The notes below the pieces were generated by a model. That model was given only the letters and a program-made list of their open reading frames with translations. It ran no database searches and was not told the origin of the DNA. 32,383 bases of DNA from positions 1 through 32,383 of the IMG/VR virus record IMGVR_UViG_2861069343_000002; one strand, written 5' to 3'. The stretch comes from a virus. Its lineage: Duplodnaviria; Heunggongvirae; Uroviricota; Caudoviricetes. Positions within the stretch are counted from its first letter, which is position 1. Each line of letters begins with the position of its first letter. Shown here piece after piece: positions 1,392 through 22,024 of this stretch. The translations under genes and the position numbers were made by a program.

Positions 1392-1925
1392 TTAAAATAC
1401 GGTGAATACATCACACAGGTCCGATAAAACTTCTCGACAAACATGCCTATGATCGCTGAGCACAGAGTTTATATGCTGAAGTGTTATATACTCTTCATAC
1501 CATTCTTGTGTTACAACATTTTTCAAATTATAGAGCCTGTGAAATGACTCTTTTGCCTCCTGCGAATTAACAAATTGTTGATTATGCCCCATTAACCTCA
1601 TTAAAAACCCCTCCAAACAAAATGGTGAGGATTGAATGATTTGTATGTCTCTATTTCTAGCAGCAGATAGAGCATCAGTAGGTATTGCAAGGTCTGAGTC
1701 AATAAAAACAACTCTTTTATCAAAACTACCAGCATGGTTTATAGCAGCCATTATAGCTGATTTCGGTCCTCCACCGCCGGCATCATCTAACCTAACACTA
1801 AACCCTGCAGTCCTAGTTGTTAAGAGTCGTTTTAAACAATCAGCAAATCTTTTATCAGTAATTCCTTCGCACATCAAAAGCTTAGTTCGTTCAACTCCAC
1901 GCTTTACACGTCTGGGCTTCATCAT
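1392..1925 (-). CDS. RloB-like / TOPRIM-like small protein, partner of the upstream AAA ATPase
   Basis: 177 aa. N-terminal basic stretch then LLMCEGITDKRF (CEGxT[ED] motif as in RloB/DUF4276), later VVFIDSDLA acidic motif. ATG overlaps the ATPase stop (ATGATGA junction at 1922..1925), indicating translational coupling. Confidence 0.5.
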   Translation of the reverse strand: MMKPRRVKRGVERTKLLMCEGITDKRFADCLKRLLTTRTAGFSVRLDDAGGGGPKSAIMAAINHAGSFDKRVVFIDSDLAIPTDALSAARNRDIQIIQSSPFCLEGFLMRLMGHNQQFVNSQEAKESFHRLYNLKNVVTQEWYEEYITLQHINSVLSDHRHVCREVLSDLCDVFTVF

Positions 1926-3196
1926 AAGTCTGGTACTCCTCCAAAAGCACCAGCTAAATATTTAGCCGCAATATTATCGTCGACTCGCGCCTCACTGGAT
2001 GGAAAATCATCAAGTCGATAACATTCACTTCTATTGAATTTTTTCTCAGTAATCAACACACGGTACTTACCCAAATAATTTATCAATTCGGGTTTATGAC
2101 AAGTAAAAATTAACTGTGTATGTAACGGGTTTGTTTCTTTACTGATAAACAACTCTAATATAGGTTTAACCATATGTGGGTGCAAATCATCACCAAGTTC
2201 ATCAATAAAGCATGCTGTTCCTTTTTTCAGACATTGCATAATATTATGCAATCTGATAAATGCACTTTGTGTTCCAGCAGATTCGAATGCAAAGGGTAAC
2301 TCAAACTTGGAACCATCTTCTTTTTCATGAATACCATTTATAATATAATAAACATCCTTCTCACCGTTTATATCAACTTTCTCTTCTTTTTCTATAGTTA
2401 TATCATCTAAACCTAAATCCCATTTGCGTAAAATATTTTTTACACTTTTAAAGGCTACTGGATCTTTATATAAATCCTCCGCTGTCGCACCTAAATCTCC
2501 ATAATCATAGCTATACCTTCCCATAGCATTTACATTAGTAGTACTGCTCATTTTTTCGGCTATATCTATAGCCAAAGGAACACCTACACGGCGAGCTGCA
2601 GAAATTATACTTGTATTAGCAGGAGTTCTCTTACCCTCTAAAAGACCTAAAGGAAAAAGTTCTGCTTTTTCAACATAATCATATTTAATTGTTTTTAACA
2701 GTTCTTCAACTTCTTGATGACTAAAATCATCACTACAATTATTTAACTGTTTCTCATAATTTTCTTTATCCAACTTCCTTTTAAAAACATAGATATTTTT
2801 ATTTTTCTCATTTCTTACATACAATTCTTCTTTAATGACAAAATGGTCGCAGGCCGTAACAACATATGTGTATACTTTTCCATCTAAAACAAAACATATT
2901 TTAATCATACCTGGTTTTGTAAAAGGCCGATTAATGTTTAAATACAGATAATCAGTTACTTTTGCTGGTATAGACCAAAAAAACCAACTCAAGAAAGACA
3001 TTGGTTTAAGGAGTGTTGTCTTACCGGAGGCGTTCGCCCCCATGATAGCAGTAATCAGATTGACCTTGTGTCCATCTACATCTACCCACAGTTCTTTTTT
3101 CTTATCTTTAGCTGTAGTAGTTAGGTCTACGAACCCACCTTCATCTTCAAAGCTACCGATATTCTTAATCTCATACCAAAGTATAGCGTTAGCCAT
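1922..3196 (-). CDS. AAA family ATPase (ABC/AAA_21-like), candidate abortive-infection/defense ATPase
   Basis: 424 aa. Walker A GANASGKTT near N-terminus; Walker B plus H-loop ACFIDELGDDLHPH near C-terminus. Strong SD (AAGAGGGG) before ATG at 3196. AT-rich. Confidence 0.7.
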   Translation of the reverse strand: MANAILWYEIKNIGSFEDEGGFVDLTTTAKDKKKELWVDVDGHKVNLITAIMGANASGKTTLLKPMSFLSWFFWSIPAKVTDYLYLNINRPFTKPGMIKICFVLDGKVYTYVVTACDHFVIKEELYVRNEKNKNIYVFKRKLDKENYEKQLNNCSDDFSHQEVEELLKTIKYDYVEKAELFPLGLLEGKRTPANTSIISAARRVGVPLAIDIAEKMSSTTNVNAMGRYSYDYGDLGATAEDLYKDPVAFKSVKNILRKWDLGLDDITIEKEEKVDINGEKDVYYIINGIHEKEDGSKFELPFAFESAGTQSAFIRLHNIMQCLKKGTACFIDELGDDLHPHMVKPILELFISKETNPLHTQLIFTCHKPELINYLGKYRVLITEKKFNRSECYRLDDFPSSEARVDDNIAAKYLAGAFGGVPDL

Positions 3197-17067: not shown

Positions 17068-18120
17068 TTATTTCCCCACCAGCTCGTTTATCTCTTTCAC
17101 TGTCTGGTTAAACCGCTCTGACTCAAGCTCAACACCTAAGGCCCGACGCCCCAGCGCCATTGCTGCTTTTATTGTGGAACCGGATCCCATAAAAAAATCA
17201 GCAACCAGATCACCTGGTCGACTACTGGCATTGATTATTTGCCTGAGCATATCCGCCGGTTTCTCACACGGATGTTTCCCCGGGTAGAACTGAACGGGTT
17301 TATGCATCCAGACATCGGTATAAGGCACGGAGACTGATACGGAGAAATAGCGCCGGAGAGATTTAAACTCATCCAGCAATTCAGAATATTTGCGATTCAG
17401 TGAATCATAAGATGCCACCAGCTGGTGGTGTGGTTGTTCCAGTTGTTGTTCCTGAAACTTCTCTGCCGCTATACGGGAAAACAGTGCCTGTAACTTCCGA
17501 TAGTCAGCCTCATTCGGCAACTGCCACTGACTGGCACCAAACCAGTGGGAAACCATATTTTTCTTACCTGTGGCTTCGGCAATTTGTTTTGCCGTTACAC
17601 CCAGTTCGGCACGAGCATCCCTGAAATACGATATCAGCGGTGCCATTATGTGCTGTTTGAGTTCCCTTTCTTTTGCCGCATAGCCGTCACTTTTGCCGCG
17701 ATATGGTCCCTGGTAATGTTCAGCAAACAGAACGCGCTCTGTGGCAGGAAAATATGCGCGCAGACTTTCTTTATTACACCCATTCCAACGTCCGGACGGC
17801 TTCGCCCAGATGATATGGTTAAGCACGTTGAAACGTTCACGCATCATGATCTCAATATCAGATGCCAGGCGATGCCCACAGAACAGGTAAAGGCTTCCGG
17901 CAGGTTTCAACACCCGCCAGAACTGGGCCAGACAGTGGTCCAGCCACTTAAGGTAATCTTCGTCCCCTTTCCACTGATTGTCCCAACCGTTGGGTTTCAC
18001 CTTGAAGTAAGGCGGATCGGTAACAATCAGGTCAATGGAATCATCAGGCAGGGACTGAATAAAATGCAGGCAATCAGCGTTGATTAAATCAACACTGTTT
18101 ATTTTTACAGTATTTTTCAT
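17068..18120 (-). CDS. DNA N6-adenine (or N4-cytosine) methyltransferase, beta-class, orphan phage MTase
   Basis: Motif IV DPPY near N-terminus (LIVTDPPYF) and AdoMet motif I FMGSGST near C-terminus; 350 aa. Confidence 0.8.
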
Positions 18121-18464: not shown

Positions 18465-18586
18465 GTCTTTTTTCCTTCTGGTTAACATGACATACCAATA
18501 ACTCTTGTCTAAAAAGCCAGCAAGATAAAAAGTCAGTATTCACGACCACCAGCGTGTTTACCGTACTGCACCAGGTTTACAGGTAC

Positions 18587-18612
18587 AAAAAAACCCGCTC
18601 GACGGCGGGTTT
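18587..18612 (-). terminator. Strong minus-strand intrinsic terminator upstream of the plus-strand cassette
   Basis: Minus-strand AAACCCGC-CGTCGA-GCGGGTTT hairpin followed by TTTTTTT. Confidence 0.5.
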
Positions 18613-18657
18613 AAGTTGTGTGGCGAAGTAACCACTCTTAACACAATACAATACTTT

Positions 18658-18686
18658 TTGCGTACGCGTTATAGTTTTCTTACAAT
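18658..18686 (+). promoter_or_regulatory. Candidate sigma70 promoter of the DUF262-HEPN cassette
   Basis: TTGCGT (18658..18663), 17 nt spacer, TACAAT (18681..18686); SD AAGGAA then ATG at 18713. Confidence 0.3.
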
Positions 18687-18712
18687 CAACTTTCAATTAA
18701 AGGAACGAAAAC

Positions 18713-19873
18713 ATGACTACACTCAAAGAACTCAAAGAAGAGCTTGCTCAGATACAAGATGAACACGCTAAGAACAGAAAAAAGGCTGAAATTGCAGCTT
18801 TAACCGCTTCCGCTGACAATGAAATCAGACTCGCTCAGAGAAACATTGGATACAATGTACGTGAGTGGACCGTTGAAGTCATTATTCAAAAGTATGGTGA
18901 TAATATTGAAAATGACAAAAACGAGCTTTTTATTCCAGATTATCAACGTGATTACAAGTGGGATACAAAAACAGCCTCTCGCTTTATAGAAAGTATTCTA
19001 TTAGACTTTCCAATACCTTACCTTTACATTGCTGATGTATTTAATGAAGACCCTGAATTAGATGGTAGGGTAGAAATCATTGATGGTTCACAACGGATAC
19101 GCTCTATTTATTATTTTTGGAACGATCAATTTGAGTTAAAGGATTTGAAAGAGCTTAAAAGTTTAGAAGGTTTCAAATTTTCAGATCTTTTAGCTAGCCG
19201 CCAAAGAAGATTTTTAAGAGCTTCACTAAGATTTATTGAGTTGAAAGGTGATGTTGAGGAACAACATAGAAGAGATTTATTTGAAAGGATCAACTCAGGT
19301 GTTAAAAGATTAGAAGCGATGGAAGTGAGGCATGGCTCAGATGCTGCTACCTCAATGTTCTATAAAGATGTTGTGACCCCATGCTCAACAAACTCACTTT
19401 TTTCCCAACTAGCTCCATTATCAGACCGGAAACGGTCGAATGGCGATCATCGTGAGTTAGTTTTGAGATTTTTTGCATATTTAAATGATTTAGAAAACTA
19501 TAAGGGATTTGTCCGTCCCTTTATTGATAATTATTTAAATGAACAAGCAGCAGCTGTGACTACTCAACAAGATGTTGATAATTTTAAACATGATTTTGAA
19601 ATGATGCTTGCTTTTGTTGCTACCCATTTCCCTATTGGCTTTAAAAAGACCGCAACAAGTAAAACCACCCCACGAGCCAGATACGAAGCCATTGCCGTGG
19701 GAACTGCACTTGCATTAAAAACTAACCCACAACTCCAGAGTCCAGCCGTACCTGTAGGTGAATGGCTATTTGAAGAGGAATTTGAAACACTTGTTACTGC
19801 TGATAGTGCAAACAATACCAGCCAGCTAAAAAACAGAATCTTTTACGTTAAAAATAAGTTGTTAGGGATTTAA
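18713..19873 (+). CDS. DUF262 (ParB/Srx-like, GmrS-type N-terminal domain) protein
   Basis: 386 aa; hallmark motifs FIPDYQRDYKW and IIDGSQRIRSI (DGQQR variant); no DUF1524/HNH C-terminal domain evident; AT-rich. Confidence 0.75.
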   Translation: MTTLKELKEELAQIQDEHAKNRKKAEIAALTASADNEIRLAQRNIGYNVREWTVEVIIQKYGDNIENDKNELFIPDYQRDYKWDTKTASRFIESILLDFPIPYLYIADVFNEDPELDGRVEIIDGSQRIRSIYYFWNDQFELKDLKELKSLEGFKFSDLLASRQRRFLRASLRFIELKGDVEEQHRRDLFERINSGVKRLEAMEVRHGSDAATSMFYKDVVTPCSTNSLFSQLAPLSDRKRSNGDHRELVLRFFAYLNDLENYKGFVRPFIDNYLNEQAAAVTTQQDVDNFKHDFEMMLAFVATHFPIGFKKTATSKTTPRARYEAIAVGTALALKTNPQLQSPAVPVGEWLFEEEFETLVTADSANNTSQLKNRIFYVKNKLLGI

Positions 19874-19875
19874 AA

Positions 19876-20565
19876 ATGAGTCTAATTGATTTACGAGATG
19901 AATATGAAGAAAGAGCAAGAGACATTATGGAACTGCTTTCTCTTGCATCATCTATAGAGATTCATACTCAGCAGTTAGATCCGCAAGCGCATCAAGATGA
20001 AATAGAATCTAATATCCTAAGGGTAAATATTTTAAAATCATCCGTTCATATGATGCTATATAATCAAGTTGAAAATACTGCCAGAGGTTGCATCGAGTCA
20101 ATTTATGATCATTTACAAGATAATGAGGTGAATTACGCATCACTCAGGGAGAAGCTTCAAGTAAATATATTACATAGAATTGTTTCAGATAATGAAACAG
20201 GGCAATCCCTTTATAAAAAGATAGGCACTGACATTTCCAAAAGAATAATTTCAGCCTCATTGAATATTCGTAAAGAATTCAATGGTAATGTTTGCAAGCC
20301 TGTATTACACAAAATAACGCAGGCTTACGGAATAACTATCGCAAACTCACCTGAATGTAGAAATGGTATTGACTTAGACTTGCTTAAGGATATCAGAAAC
20401 GAACTCGCGCATGGAAGTACTAGCTTCTCTAAAAAGGGGCAAATTGACCCCTTAGAAGAAGTTAAGTCTAGAGCAGAGAGAGTTGATCTATATCTTCGTT
20501 TATTAATAAACTCAACTGAAGATTATATTATCTCTAACGGATATTTATCCCCTCAACATGCCTAA
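19876..20565 (+). CDS. HEPN-domain protein (Rx4H motif), putative RNase effector coupled to the DUF262 gene
   Basis: 229 aa; RNELAH matches HEPN R-x4-6-H; starts 2 nt after the DUF262 stop with SD AGGGA; 3' end overlaps convergent MTase gene by 32 nt. Confidence 0.65.
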   Translation: MSLIDLRDEYEERARDIMELLSLASSIEIHTQQLDPQAHQDEIESNILRVNILKSSVHMMLYNQVENTARGCIESIYDHLQDNEVNYASLREKLQVNILHRIVSDNETGQSLYKKIGTDISKRIISASLNIRKEFNGNVCKPVLHKITQAYGITIANSPECRNGIDLDLLKDIRNELAHGSTSFSKKGQIDPLEEVKSRAERVDLYLRLLINSTEDYIISNGYLSPQHA

Positions 20566-21574
20566 CAAACGTTCTCCCTATTACTTGGCCAATTATAGGG
20601 GGAACAGCATTACCAATCATCGTTCCTAACTTTTGGAATGAAAAAGGCGTATTTTTTCCAATAAATTTATAATCCATAGGAAAAGATTGTAAAATAGCAG
20701 CTTCACGCAAAGTTATTGCTCTATTTTGCTCAGGATGTCCGAATCGCCCATTACCATATCCATAACATTGGGTAGTTATTGTAGGACTAGTATCGTCCCA
20801 AACCATCCGTCCATAAACACTTTTATAGGTAGCACCTGAATGCTTTTTATGGCAATCCGCTCTAATTTCTTCAGGCCAATCATCCCACGTACCACCTGGT
20901 AAAGAGTGCAAGATTCGTTTAAGGTTAATATCCCTTAATTTAGGCGAACGATGCAATGGATCACTTTCGAGTTTCTCCCCTGCACCTATTTTTGGCAACT
21001 GACCAATAGCATCCTTTACTGTAACTTTACGGCTTACTTTTTTTTGATCAAGGCTGATTGGCCCCAATATGGACCCAATTAGAATTAATCTACGTCTATT
21101 TTGAGGCAAGCCATACTCGGAACATTTTACAACGTCGTACCACAGATGATACCCAAGAGTCTTTAATACACTAACAAACTCTTCAAAAACCTTATGATTT
21201 CTAAGTTGAGGAACATTTTCCATAGTCACAAGCTCTGGCATGACATCACTTACAATCCTCTGAAACTCAGATAAAAGACGCCACTTTGTATCATCTTTTC
21301 TGCTATTTGGATTACGATACTTGGAAAACGGTTGGCAAGGGGCACAGCCTGCAAGTAATCTAATATTTCCTTCCTTGAACATAGCAGACACATCGCTGGA
21401 TTGCAGTTCAGTAACTGACTGGTTAATGAACTTCGTTAAGGGATTATTGCTCTCAATAGCGAAACGGCAGGACTCATCAATATCAATGCCATGAGAAACT
21501 TCAATCCCGGCTTTTTTTAGCCCAAAAGTTAAGCCCCCTGCGCCACAAAAAATGTCTACTGCTTGAATGTTCAC
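20534..21574 (-). CDS. DNA cytosine-5 methyltransferase (Dcm-like), first gene of the late operon
   Basis: Motif I DIFCGAGG, motif IV GCAPCQPFS (catalytic PC), motif VI ENV, motif VIII QNRRR, motif X GNAV; GTG start at 21574 with SD GGAGAA. Confidence 0.85.
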   Translation of the reverse strand: MNIQAVDIFCGAGGLTFGLKKAGIEVSHGIDIDESCRFAIESNNPLTKFINQSVTELQSSDVSAMFKEGNIRLLAGCAPCQPFSKYRNPNSRKDDTKWRLLSEFQRIVSDVMPELVTMENVPQLRNHKVFEEFVSVLKTLGYHLWYDVVKCSEYGLPQNRRRLILIGSILGPISLDQKKVSRKVTVKDAIGQLPKIGAGEKLESDPLHRSPKLRDINLKRILHSLPGGTWDDWPEEIRADCHKKHSGATYKSVYGRMVWDDTSPTITTQCYGYGNGRFGHPEQNRAITLREAAILQSFPMDYKFIGKNTPFSFQKLGTMIGNAVPPIIGQVIGRTFVRHVEGINIR

Positions 21575-21600
21575 AAGATTCTCCGTTACTTTACCCTGGT

Positions 21601-21629
21601 ATTATATACACATAAAAGTTGGGAAAGTA
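21601..21629 (-). promoter_or_regulatory. Candidate late promoter (pR'-like) downstream of Q
   Basis: Minus-strand TATAAT (plus attata 21601..21606) in the 79-bp Q-to-MTase gap; -35 poor (TACTTT). Confidence 0.25.
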
Positions 21630-21653
21630 GAATGATTTTACATAGCACTTAAC

Positions 21654-22007
21654 TCATTGTATTAAATAAAAAAATGACAAGCATCCATCAATAAACCCCA
21701 TAGCTGTTTGCATATCTTTTCGAACTGTTCCGTCTGAACATTTCCGCTTCTTTGCAATTGTACGGAGCGAAATGCCAACAACAAAGTGAGCAATTATCAG
21801 CTCATACTCTGCCGGCTTGTATTTACGCAACCTAGCGACACAACCGTCTATTATGATGCCCTCATCATCATCGCACTGAATCCGGGACTTTCTGCCATGA
21901 GGTAAAAGCCGCTTGAAGCCAGCAGCTACCGGTTGCCAGTCCACACCACTGTTTTCTGCAGCAGCCCATGCCCCCCAGCGGTCCAAAACTTCATACATAT
22001 CACGCAT
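21654..22007 (-). CDS. Late gene antiterminator Q-family protein (Phage_antitermQ-like)
   Basis: LDRWGAWAA...W...AAGFKRL...SRIQCDDDEGIIIDGCVARL pattern matches small phage Q proteins as recalled; position before late operon; ATG 22007 with SD GGAGAAAG. Confidence 0.65.
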   Translation of the reverse strand: MRDMYEVLDRWGAWAAAENSGVDWQPVAAGFKRLLPHGRKSRIQCDDDEGIIIDGCVARLRKYKPAEYELIIAHFVVGISLRTIAKKRKCSDGTVRKDMQTAMGFIDGCLSFFYLIQ

Positions 22008-22024
22008 CAACTTTCTCCACAAAA

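Follow-up and report, generated by a model that had tools for sequence, protein, structure and literature searches.

A conserved DUF262, HEPN and cytosine methyltransferase trio in a lambdoid prophage of Escherichia coli as a candidate restriction-modification-like defence cassette

Genes of the Q-to-lysis island

The stretch of DNA analyzed here (the window) is IMG/VR virus record IMGVR_UViG_2861069343_000002, positions 1 to 32,383, and its host element is a lambdoid E. coli prophage with a CI-like repressor, a portal gene and a tail fibre gene. Between Q (21654-22022, minus strand) and the holin and lysozyme genes lies an AT-rich island, where the GC content is 0.35-0.39 across 18500-21500, compared with approximately 0.5 in the flanks. 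An initial annotation, made from the sequence alone, had recognized this island and its Q-to-lysis position, and the GC profile and the neighboring genes agree with it on both points. The same annotation described a two-gene cassette consisting of a DUF262 gene and a HEPN gene. Our analysis does not support the number two. A third gene (C), which had been missed and encodes a C5 cytosine DNA methyltransferase, belongs to the same conserved unit as the DUF262 gene (A) and the HEPN gene (B).

Gene A (18713-19873, plus strand) encodes a protein of 386 amino acids (aa) with a ParB/DUF262 NTPase-like domain and a helical, NsnA-like C-terminal domain. Gene B (19876-20565, plus strand) lies downstream of A after a gap of 2 nucleotides (nt) and encodes a stand-alone HEPN protein of the MAE_28990 family (229 aa). 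Both open reading frames and the gap between them are as first described, and the motifs FIPDYQRDYKW, DGSQR and RNELAH quoted for them were all found in the translations, with ELFIPDYQRDYKW at aa 71-83 of A, DGSQR at aa 124-128 of A and RNELAH at aa 174-179 of B.

The sole Pfam match of A was GmrSD_N/DUF262 (PF03235; E 5.8e-26, aa 66-206), which confirms the earlier description of a DUF262 protein that lacks a DUF1524/HNH domain. Pfam and PADLOC searches found no DUF1524/HNH in A, B or their neighbors. Among PADLOC models, A was most similar to NsnA of the Menshen system (5.9e-45, aa 14-315), followed by PD-T4-2_A (PDLC04027; 4.6e-27, aa 72-346). Distant orthologues of A matched NsnA at ~1e-54 and PD-T4-2_A at ~1e-37, covering both profiles almost fully. 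NsnA has a ParB-DUF262 domain followed by a predicted DNA-binding domain (Menshen analysis, PMC12065111), and to judge from its profile matches A shares this layout of a ParB-DUF262 domain plus a C-terminal domain. The closest fold to the structure model of A (predicted local distance difference test score, pLDDT, 80) was BrxU, then ParB-CDP/CTP structures, with SspE further down. Across 15 diverse orthologues, 53 residues of A were invariant, PxYQRxxxW and DGxQR among them; mutation of the DGQQR motif abolishes defence in the GmrSD-like protein HEC-06. We predict that A is a DNA sensor and NTPase switch.

The DUF262 core of A was also matched weakly by the PADLOC REase_II model PDLC03418, at 7e-4 for the window protein and at up to 2.7e-8 for distant orthologues. 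This model is a REBASE-derived "Type II restriction enzyme" profile of 372 positions, and some listed restriction enzyme may therefore share the DUF262 core of the A family.

Pfam assigned B to HEPN_MAE_28990 (E 2.9e-17) and HEPN_RiboL-PSP (E 1.4e-7). Together with RNELAH, the former match substantiates the earlier identification of the second protein as a HEPN protein with an Rx4H motif. A profile search with B gave 669 clusters at E <= 1e-10, and among those listed nearly all were stand-alone proteins of ~205-260 aa. B is the fastest-evolving of the three proteins. Eleven of its residues were invariant across the 15 orthologues; seven of these lie within or adjoin R174-N-x-L-A-H-G-x3-F184, and RNxLAHG itself is invariant. 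We predict that B is a nuclease effector, likeliest a ribonuclease (RNase). Sequence searches of A and B against the PDB gave no match, and no NCBIfam model was found for either protein; PHROGs families exist for both, with function unassigned.

Three E. coli protein clusters (P0011, P0012 and P0016; 192 aa) correspond to alleles of B in which the reading frame is shifted by -1. The shift lies in an A5/G4 homopolymer, the A5 run of which is at 20431-20435 of the window, and removes the last 37 aa, downstream of RNELAH. These alleles may stem from errors in assembling the homopolymer, or else a costly effector may have been naturally inactivated.

Gene C (20534-21574, minus strand) starts with GTG and encodes the 346-aa C5 cytosine DNA methyltransferase, the predicted self-marking component. 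It lies in the same AT-rich island, convergent with B, and the 3′ ends of the two genes overlap by 32 nt. The assignment is based on PF00145 DNA_methylase (E 2.7e-54), PADLOC MTase_II (1.2e-88) and TIGR00675, which scored above its cut-off, and the alignment showed the catalytic motifs PCQ, ENV and QNRRR to be intact. Orthologues that are 53-57% identical were found in alpha-, beta- and gamma-proteobacteria and in cyanobacteria, and all adjoin A and B. Since every orthologue of C that was looked up, including those of ~55% identity, was part of a trio, the methyltransferase lineage appears to be dedicated to the system. The region taken as target-recognition (aa 171-283) is 57-81% conserved, above the catalytic core. 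This suggests that C recognizes one fixed target sequence, and it fits the high conservation of A. The closest solved structures were DNMT1, M.HaeIII and M.HhaI; the similarity to them is confined to the catalytic core and gives no clue to the specificity of C.

Conservation and distribution of the trio

The association of the three genes was followed through individual neighborhoods and through larger collections. A, B and C adjoin one another in the window, and they also do so in each of the 14 further contexts inspected individually, which cover four bacterial groups. These contexts are a second E. coli allele (in a prophage of sequence type 131, ST131) and loci from Klebsiella, Salmonella bongori, Yersinia, Affinibrenneria, Vibrio, Pseudomonas, Pseudoalteromonas, Actinobacillus, Salinarimonas, Phormidium, Halomonadaceae, Proteus and Undibacterium. 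The same result was obtained whichever protein was used as the starting point. Homologues of B led to the order DUF262, HEPN, C5 methyltransferase in all neighborhoods inspected. Homologues of A led to trios in V. owensii (in an integrase island), in Pseudomonas sp. M47T1 (adjoining McrBC) and in three K. pneumoniae prophages, and homologues of C (~55% identity) to trios in the cyanobacterium Phormidium, a Halomonadaceae scaffold, Proteus mirabilis and Undibacterium.

The elements that carry the trio are diverse. In Pseudoalteromonas (B 42% identical) it lies within a Tn7-like transposon, and in the beta-proteobacterium Undibacterium it is Tn7-like cargo. The trio of Y. mollaretii lies between Q and a holin gene, and that of S. 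bongori in a prophage. Others were found in Affinibrenneria, in an Actinobacillus metagenome-assembled genome and in the alpha-proteobacterium Salinarimonas soli. In P. mirabilis its host element is a P2-like prophage, in which it is flanked by the replication and portal genes; the replication-to-portal site of P2 is a defence hotspot (PMC9519451). Taken together, the lambdoid Q-to-holin slot, the P2 hotspot, Tn7-like cargo and the position beside McrBC are sites of the defence type.

In Pseudomonas sp. M47T1 (L012, 2003-4827) the trio is ~1 kb from McrBC, which restricts DNA with methylated cytosine. A trio predicted to make 5-methylcytosine (m5C) so close to McrBC would imply compatible specificities or an interplay of both systems.

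IMG/VR was scanned with the alignment of A, and open reading frames were scored by hidden Markov models built from 15 trios. Seventy viral loci were obtained; B and C were present in all 63 that had at least 1.7 kb of downstream sequence, and the remaining seven end at a contig edge. A scan of genome contigs with the alignment of B gave three loci only, B being too variable for peptide patterns. Among 5,426 complete E. coli genomes, 107 (~2%) carry the cassette, and it was whole in every one of them, with no partial copies. Two alleles are represented, one at >=99% identity, that is, at least 99%, in 34 genomes and the other at ~87% in 73 genomes, ST131 among the latter. The ST131 allele occupies the same Q-to-holin slot in the one genome inspected.

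The arrangement of the genes is less constant than their company. C is convergent with A and B in most cassettes, the order is co-directional A-B-C in Salinarimonas, Phormidium and Undibacterium, and it is C-A-B in one locus (L080); throughout these changes of orientation C has kept its adjacency to A-B. Identity to the window proteins drops together, from 90% to 40% in A, from 91% to 26% in B and from 94% to 53% in C, and the active-site motifs remain intact (DGxQR and PxYQR in A; RNxLAHG in B; PCQ/ENV/QxRxR in C). Co-occurrence, co-divergence and the retained adjacency indicate that the functional unit is the trio. The comparison of genomes shows A, B and C to be one conserved mobile unit.

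Relation to known systems and proposed function

The initial annotation could not match the locus to a named defence system. This still holds in that no exact named match was found; however, A is related over its full length to NsnA and PD-T4-2_A, and the gene triad itself was listed in 2013. PD-T4-2 of E. coli ECOR65 is a DUF262+HEPN system that protects against T4 as a clone as well as in the strain it comes from (Vassallo et al. 2022; PMC9519451). Our comparison with it rests on PADLOC models and on the HHpred tables of that paper. Like the cassette, PD-T4-2 consists of a DUF262/ParB-like gene without DUF1524 followed by a small HEPN gene (RiboL-PSP/MAE_28990 clan), and its first protein is matched by A of the window at the 4.6e-27 given above. 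The two differ in length (1.54 kb compared with 1.85 kb for A+B). Further, the 1.8-kb clone of PD-T4-2 is active although it has no methyltransferase, whereas the clade of the cassette always carries one. Window B gave no match to PD-T4-2_B at E <= 0.1 in PADLOC, and of eight distant B orthologues only that of V. owensii matched this model, partially (2.4e-4). With this in mind, we file the cassette as a putative methylase-linked sister of PD-T4-2. PADLOC would call neither PD-T4-2, as its B model is unmatched, nor Menshen, as NsnB and NsnC are missing. The sole methylase-containing system of Vassallo et al., PD-lambda-5 (PMC9519451), was also considered and was rejected because none of its models was among the PADLOC matches listed for A, B and C (for C, the best 25 of 62).

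The exact architecture was listed by Anantharaman et al. 2013 (PMC3710099, Table 1), as a one-line annotation of an operon with a MAE_28990 HEPN, a ParB nuclease and a DNA methylase. Their triad shares with the cassette the MAE_28990 HEPN with Rx4-6H, the ParB-like gene and the DNA methylase; it differs in being a comparative-genomic annotation of a single line. By its domain composition the cassette is an instance of this triad, with a MAE_28990 HEPN, a ParB-like gene in the same operon and a linked methylase. In the library of papers searched, the triad was met with neither a name nor any experiment, mechanism, target or host range, and no study of the trio came up when protein accessions were used as queries or when work on DUF262+HEPN published since 2023 was sought.

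Other systems share parts of the cassette. In Menshen (NsnABC), NsnA is the protein most similar to A, with the ParB-DUF262 and C-terminal domains in common, but its partners are the ABC ATPase NsnB and the effector NsnC, in contrast to the HEPN and methyltransferase of the cassette; searches of open reading frames, Pfam and PADLOC found no ATPase in the island. GmrSD, BrxU and SspE have a DUF262 NTPase domain with DGxQR, BrxU being the best structural match to A. In contrast to the cassette, which has a separate HEPN effector and its own modification enzyme, these proteins use a DUF1524 HNH nuclease and attack modified DNA. Membership in the GmrSD family was rejected because DUF1524 is lacking. 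With type II restriction-modification (R-M) systems the cassette shares a methyltransferase with intact catalytic motifs. PrrC is a HEPN anticodon nuclease embedded in the type I R-M system EcoprrI. It resembles the cassette in that a HEPN ribonuclease is tied to R-M both genetically and functionally, so that self-marking of DNA is combined with an RNA-cleaving response. Unlike the predicted effector B, PrrC is kept in check by a complete type Ic enzyme until a phage anti-restriction peptide triggers it; the partner in the cassette is a DUF262 protein, and no classical restriction enzyme was recognized there.

We consider it probable that the locus is a three-gene mobile R-M-like defence cassette in which C provides self-marking, A sensing and B the effector. 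This reading is based on the strict methyltransferase linkage, the lack of any other recognized nuclease in the cassette, the convergent layout, which is typical of R-M systems, and the validated anti-T4 activity of the DUF262+HEPN system PD-T4-2. The initial proposal of a candidate uncharacterised defence system is supported, as are the domain assignments, the tight coupling and the location. The strict linkage of C shifts the reading from the suggested resemblance to type IV-like or plain abortive-infection modules towards restriction-modification.

Under the R-M-like reading, C would methylate a fixed short DNA sequence on the chromosome of the host and its prophage, and this would be the self mark. 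Translational coupling would fix the ratio of A to B. A would scan DNA, and unmethylated copies of the site on incoming DNA would trigger a switch that depends on NTP and resembles those of ParB, BrxU and SspE; this switch would release or activate B. The HEPN site of B would then cleave RNA, either phage or host transcripts or tRNA, and halt the infection, possibly at the cell's cost. In a less likely variant, A itself would nick or cut DNA. On a prophage, the cassette would exclude competing phages, and it would also addict the host to the element, as loss of methylation would unleash A and B. The most specific form of this idea, in which the trio is a methylation-gated HEPN RNase, that is, an R-M system that restricts through RNA instead of DNA with A reading the absence of the mark, is one that we put forward tentatively and consider less likely than not.

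Several points weigh against the R-M-like reading. The anti-phage activity, methylation sensitivity and RNase activity of the cassette are predictions, and the two structure models are of moderate quality (pLDDT 73 and 80). Pfam and PADLOC recognized no DNase fold in the cassette, the weak PDLC03418 match being the only hint of one; without such a fold, the cassette would not count as a classical restriction enzyme. K-12 tolerates PD-T4-2, which works from a cloned fragment that has no methylase, so a self mark is no inherent requirement of DUF262-HEPN pairs. Finally, the known DUF262 enzymes GmrSD, BrxU and SspE recognize modified, not unmodified, DNA.

This last point makes an SspE-like, modification-licensed variant a serious rival. 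Here A would read the m5C that C places on host DNA, this would stimulate its NTPase and arm the system against unmarked invaders, and the methyltransferase would be an activator of the defence, beyond a mere protector. Phosphorothioate on self DNA is needed for the activity of SspE, the DUF262 domain of which detects it, BrxU acts on m5C DNA in vitro, and every DUF262 domain that has been characterised binds modified DNA. Such a model is equally compatible with the strict linkage of C to A-B. Nevertheless, PD-T4-2 is active without a linked modification gene, and we regard this alternative as unlikely, though it is the one that we would take up first.

We find it harder to accept the model implied by the initial annotation, in which A and B are a self-contained abortive-infection or type IV-like pair and C is an unrelated anti-restriction or epigenetic gene that shares the slot. 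PD-T4-2 does function as a pair whose clone has no methylase, C is encoded opposite to A and B and has its own promoter-like element, and orphan methyltransferases are frequent in phages, this prophage having a second one at 17068-18120. However, an independent C would not be expected to accompany A and B in 14 of 14 contexts, 63 of 63 viral contigs and 107 of 107 E. coli genomes, nor outside phages, as it does in Tn7-like cargo and at the chromosomal site by McrBC. C also co-diverges with A and B, its adjacency survives rearrangement, and look-ups that started from C alone always returned A and B. Independence of C is therefore quite improbable.

Slightly less probable again is pure selfishness, where the trio would kill cells that lose the prophage or transposon, as methylation decays and A-B attack, without giving meaningful protection. 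Type II R-M systems are known to kill cells from which the element has been lost. The cassette is always on mobile elements, and no partial cassettes were found in E. coli. On the other hand, addiction is compatible with defence and does not exclude it, the cassette is found in recognized hotspots of defence genes, and the closest relative that has been validated defends cells against T4.

The weakest alternative, to which we give very little credence, is an epigenetic module without a restriction arm, with A+B as a split DndB-like regulator that tunes the expression or activity of the methyltransferase: DndB, a negative regulator of dnd modification genes, is a ParB-like domain fused to HEPN (Makarova et al. 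2013), HHpred of PD-T4-2A also matches DndB, and in enterobacterial cassettes the palindrome GCGTACGC overlaps the putative -35 of the A promoter (see below), but the Pfam DndB model gives no match to A, the palindrome is confined to one subgroup, invariance of RNxLAHG and DGxQR over very long distances is unexpected in a pure DNA-binding regulator, B evolves fastest, as is typical of arms-race effectors, and the related PD-T4-2 pair is a proven defence.

If the R-M-like reading is true, the cassette would join two kinds of defence that mostly occur apart, the methylation self-marking of R-M and the HEPN RNase effector known from abortive infection, type III CRISPR and PrrC. In addition, it would provide the first DUF262/ParB-fold sensor that has a DNA-modifying enzyme, here a cytosine methylase, as its own partner, and it could settle what DUF262 reads in PD-T4-2 and Menshen, the mechanisms of which are still obscure. 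The architecture has stood in a table line since 2013, and specialists would not find the idea altogether new. The system is widespread, in ~2% of complete E. coli genomes, ST131 included, and in many Klebsiella prophages. The cassette should be easy to test, as it is compact (~3 kb), has its own putative promoters and is frequent in prophages of E. coli and Klebsiella of clinical importance. Its potential relevance extends to phage-therapy host range and to the m5C epigenetics of carrier strains.

Regulatory elements and neighboring features

The initial annotation had proposed a promoter for A and B at 18658-18686 (plus strand; TTGCGT-17 nt-TACAAT), and here the evidence is divided. In its favor, the putative promoter is conserved in enterobacterial cassettes, being kept in E. 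coli (both alleles), Klebsiella and S. bongori, with the -35 part only in Y. mollaretii. On the other hand, a consensus promoter scan did not flag it, as its -35 matches at three of six positions. The same scan found 13 promoter-like sites in the region compared with 10.6 +/- 3.8 in shuffles, and is thus uninformative in AT-rich DNA. Approximately 100 nt 5′ of A are conserved among enterobacterial cassettes, covering the putative promoter and a minus-strand hairpin. This hairpin, AAACCCGCCGTCGAGCGGGTTT with a T-run (18591-18612, minus strand), resembles an intrinsic terminator and marks the left edge of the cassette. Read from 18612 to 18591, it has an 8-bp stem with five GC pairs and a T-tail. 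Klebsiella and Yersinia cassettes have an equivalent hairpin in the corresponding position, and the related phage Ayreon has an annotated terminator at the homologous position of its backbone. The hairpin would stop minus-strand transcripts that are antisense to A and B.

Conserved palindromes upstream of A or C were sought as a clue to the target of the methyltransferase or to an operator. The perfect palindrome GCGTACGC (18660-18667), which overlaps the putative -35, is kept in E. coli, Klebsiella and Yersinia cassettes and is absent in S. bongori and in distant cassettes. It was rejected as a general operator or methyltransferase target because of this restricted occurrence. Within the cassettes that have it, it could be an operator or a methylation-sensitive site.

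Upstream of C lies a -10-like element, TATGTGTATATAAT (21601-21614, minus strand), followed by a GGAG ribosome-binding site. Both are in the 79-nt gap between Q and C (21575-21653), which is the sole gap between Q and the first downstream gene. The element is kept in E. coli, Klebsiella and S. bongori; the S. bongori sequence further upstream differs. If TATGTGTATATAAT is also the phage late promoter pR′, transcription of C would be constitutive, and the transcript would run antisense through B and then A to the hairpin at 18612-18591.

In Ayreon, the slot of the island holds two small hypothetical genes flanked by conserved terminators. Since the slot can hold other genes, the island is a moron, and the comparison upholds the moron position downstream of Q that was originally suggested. 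An Rfam search found no RNA family in the island. The prophage has a tyrosine integrase gene (29762-30925) that adjoins tRNA-Thr (30940-31015). Its backbone also carries the second methyltransferase mentioned above (17068-18120, minus strand), which is of the N6/N4 type (PF01555, 2.3e-42). This gene is present in Ayreon as well and is interrupted by a DUF6645 gene in the ST131 prophage.

A second AT-rich island lies past the tail fibre gene (1392-3196, minus strand; GC 0.30-0.34). It encodes a 424-aa AAA_21/AAA_15 ATPase with PADLOC matches to AbiLi (1.1e-65) and AriA (5.7e-22), and a 177-aa protein that matches AbiLii (1.5e-9), the gene of which overlaps the ATPase gene by 4 nt. From these matches, the pair looks like an AbiL-like two-gene abortive-infection system in the same prophage region.

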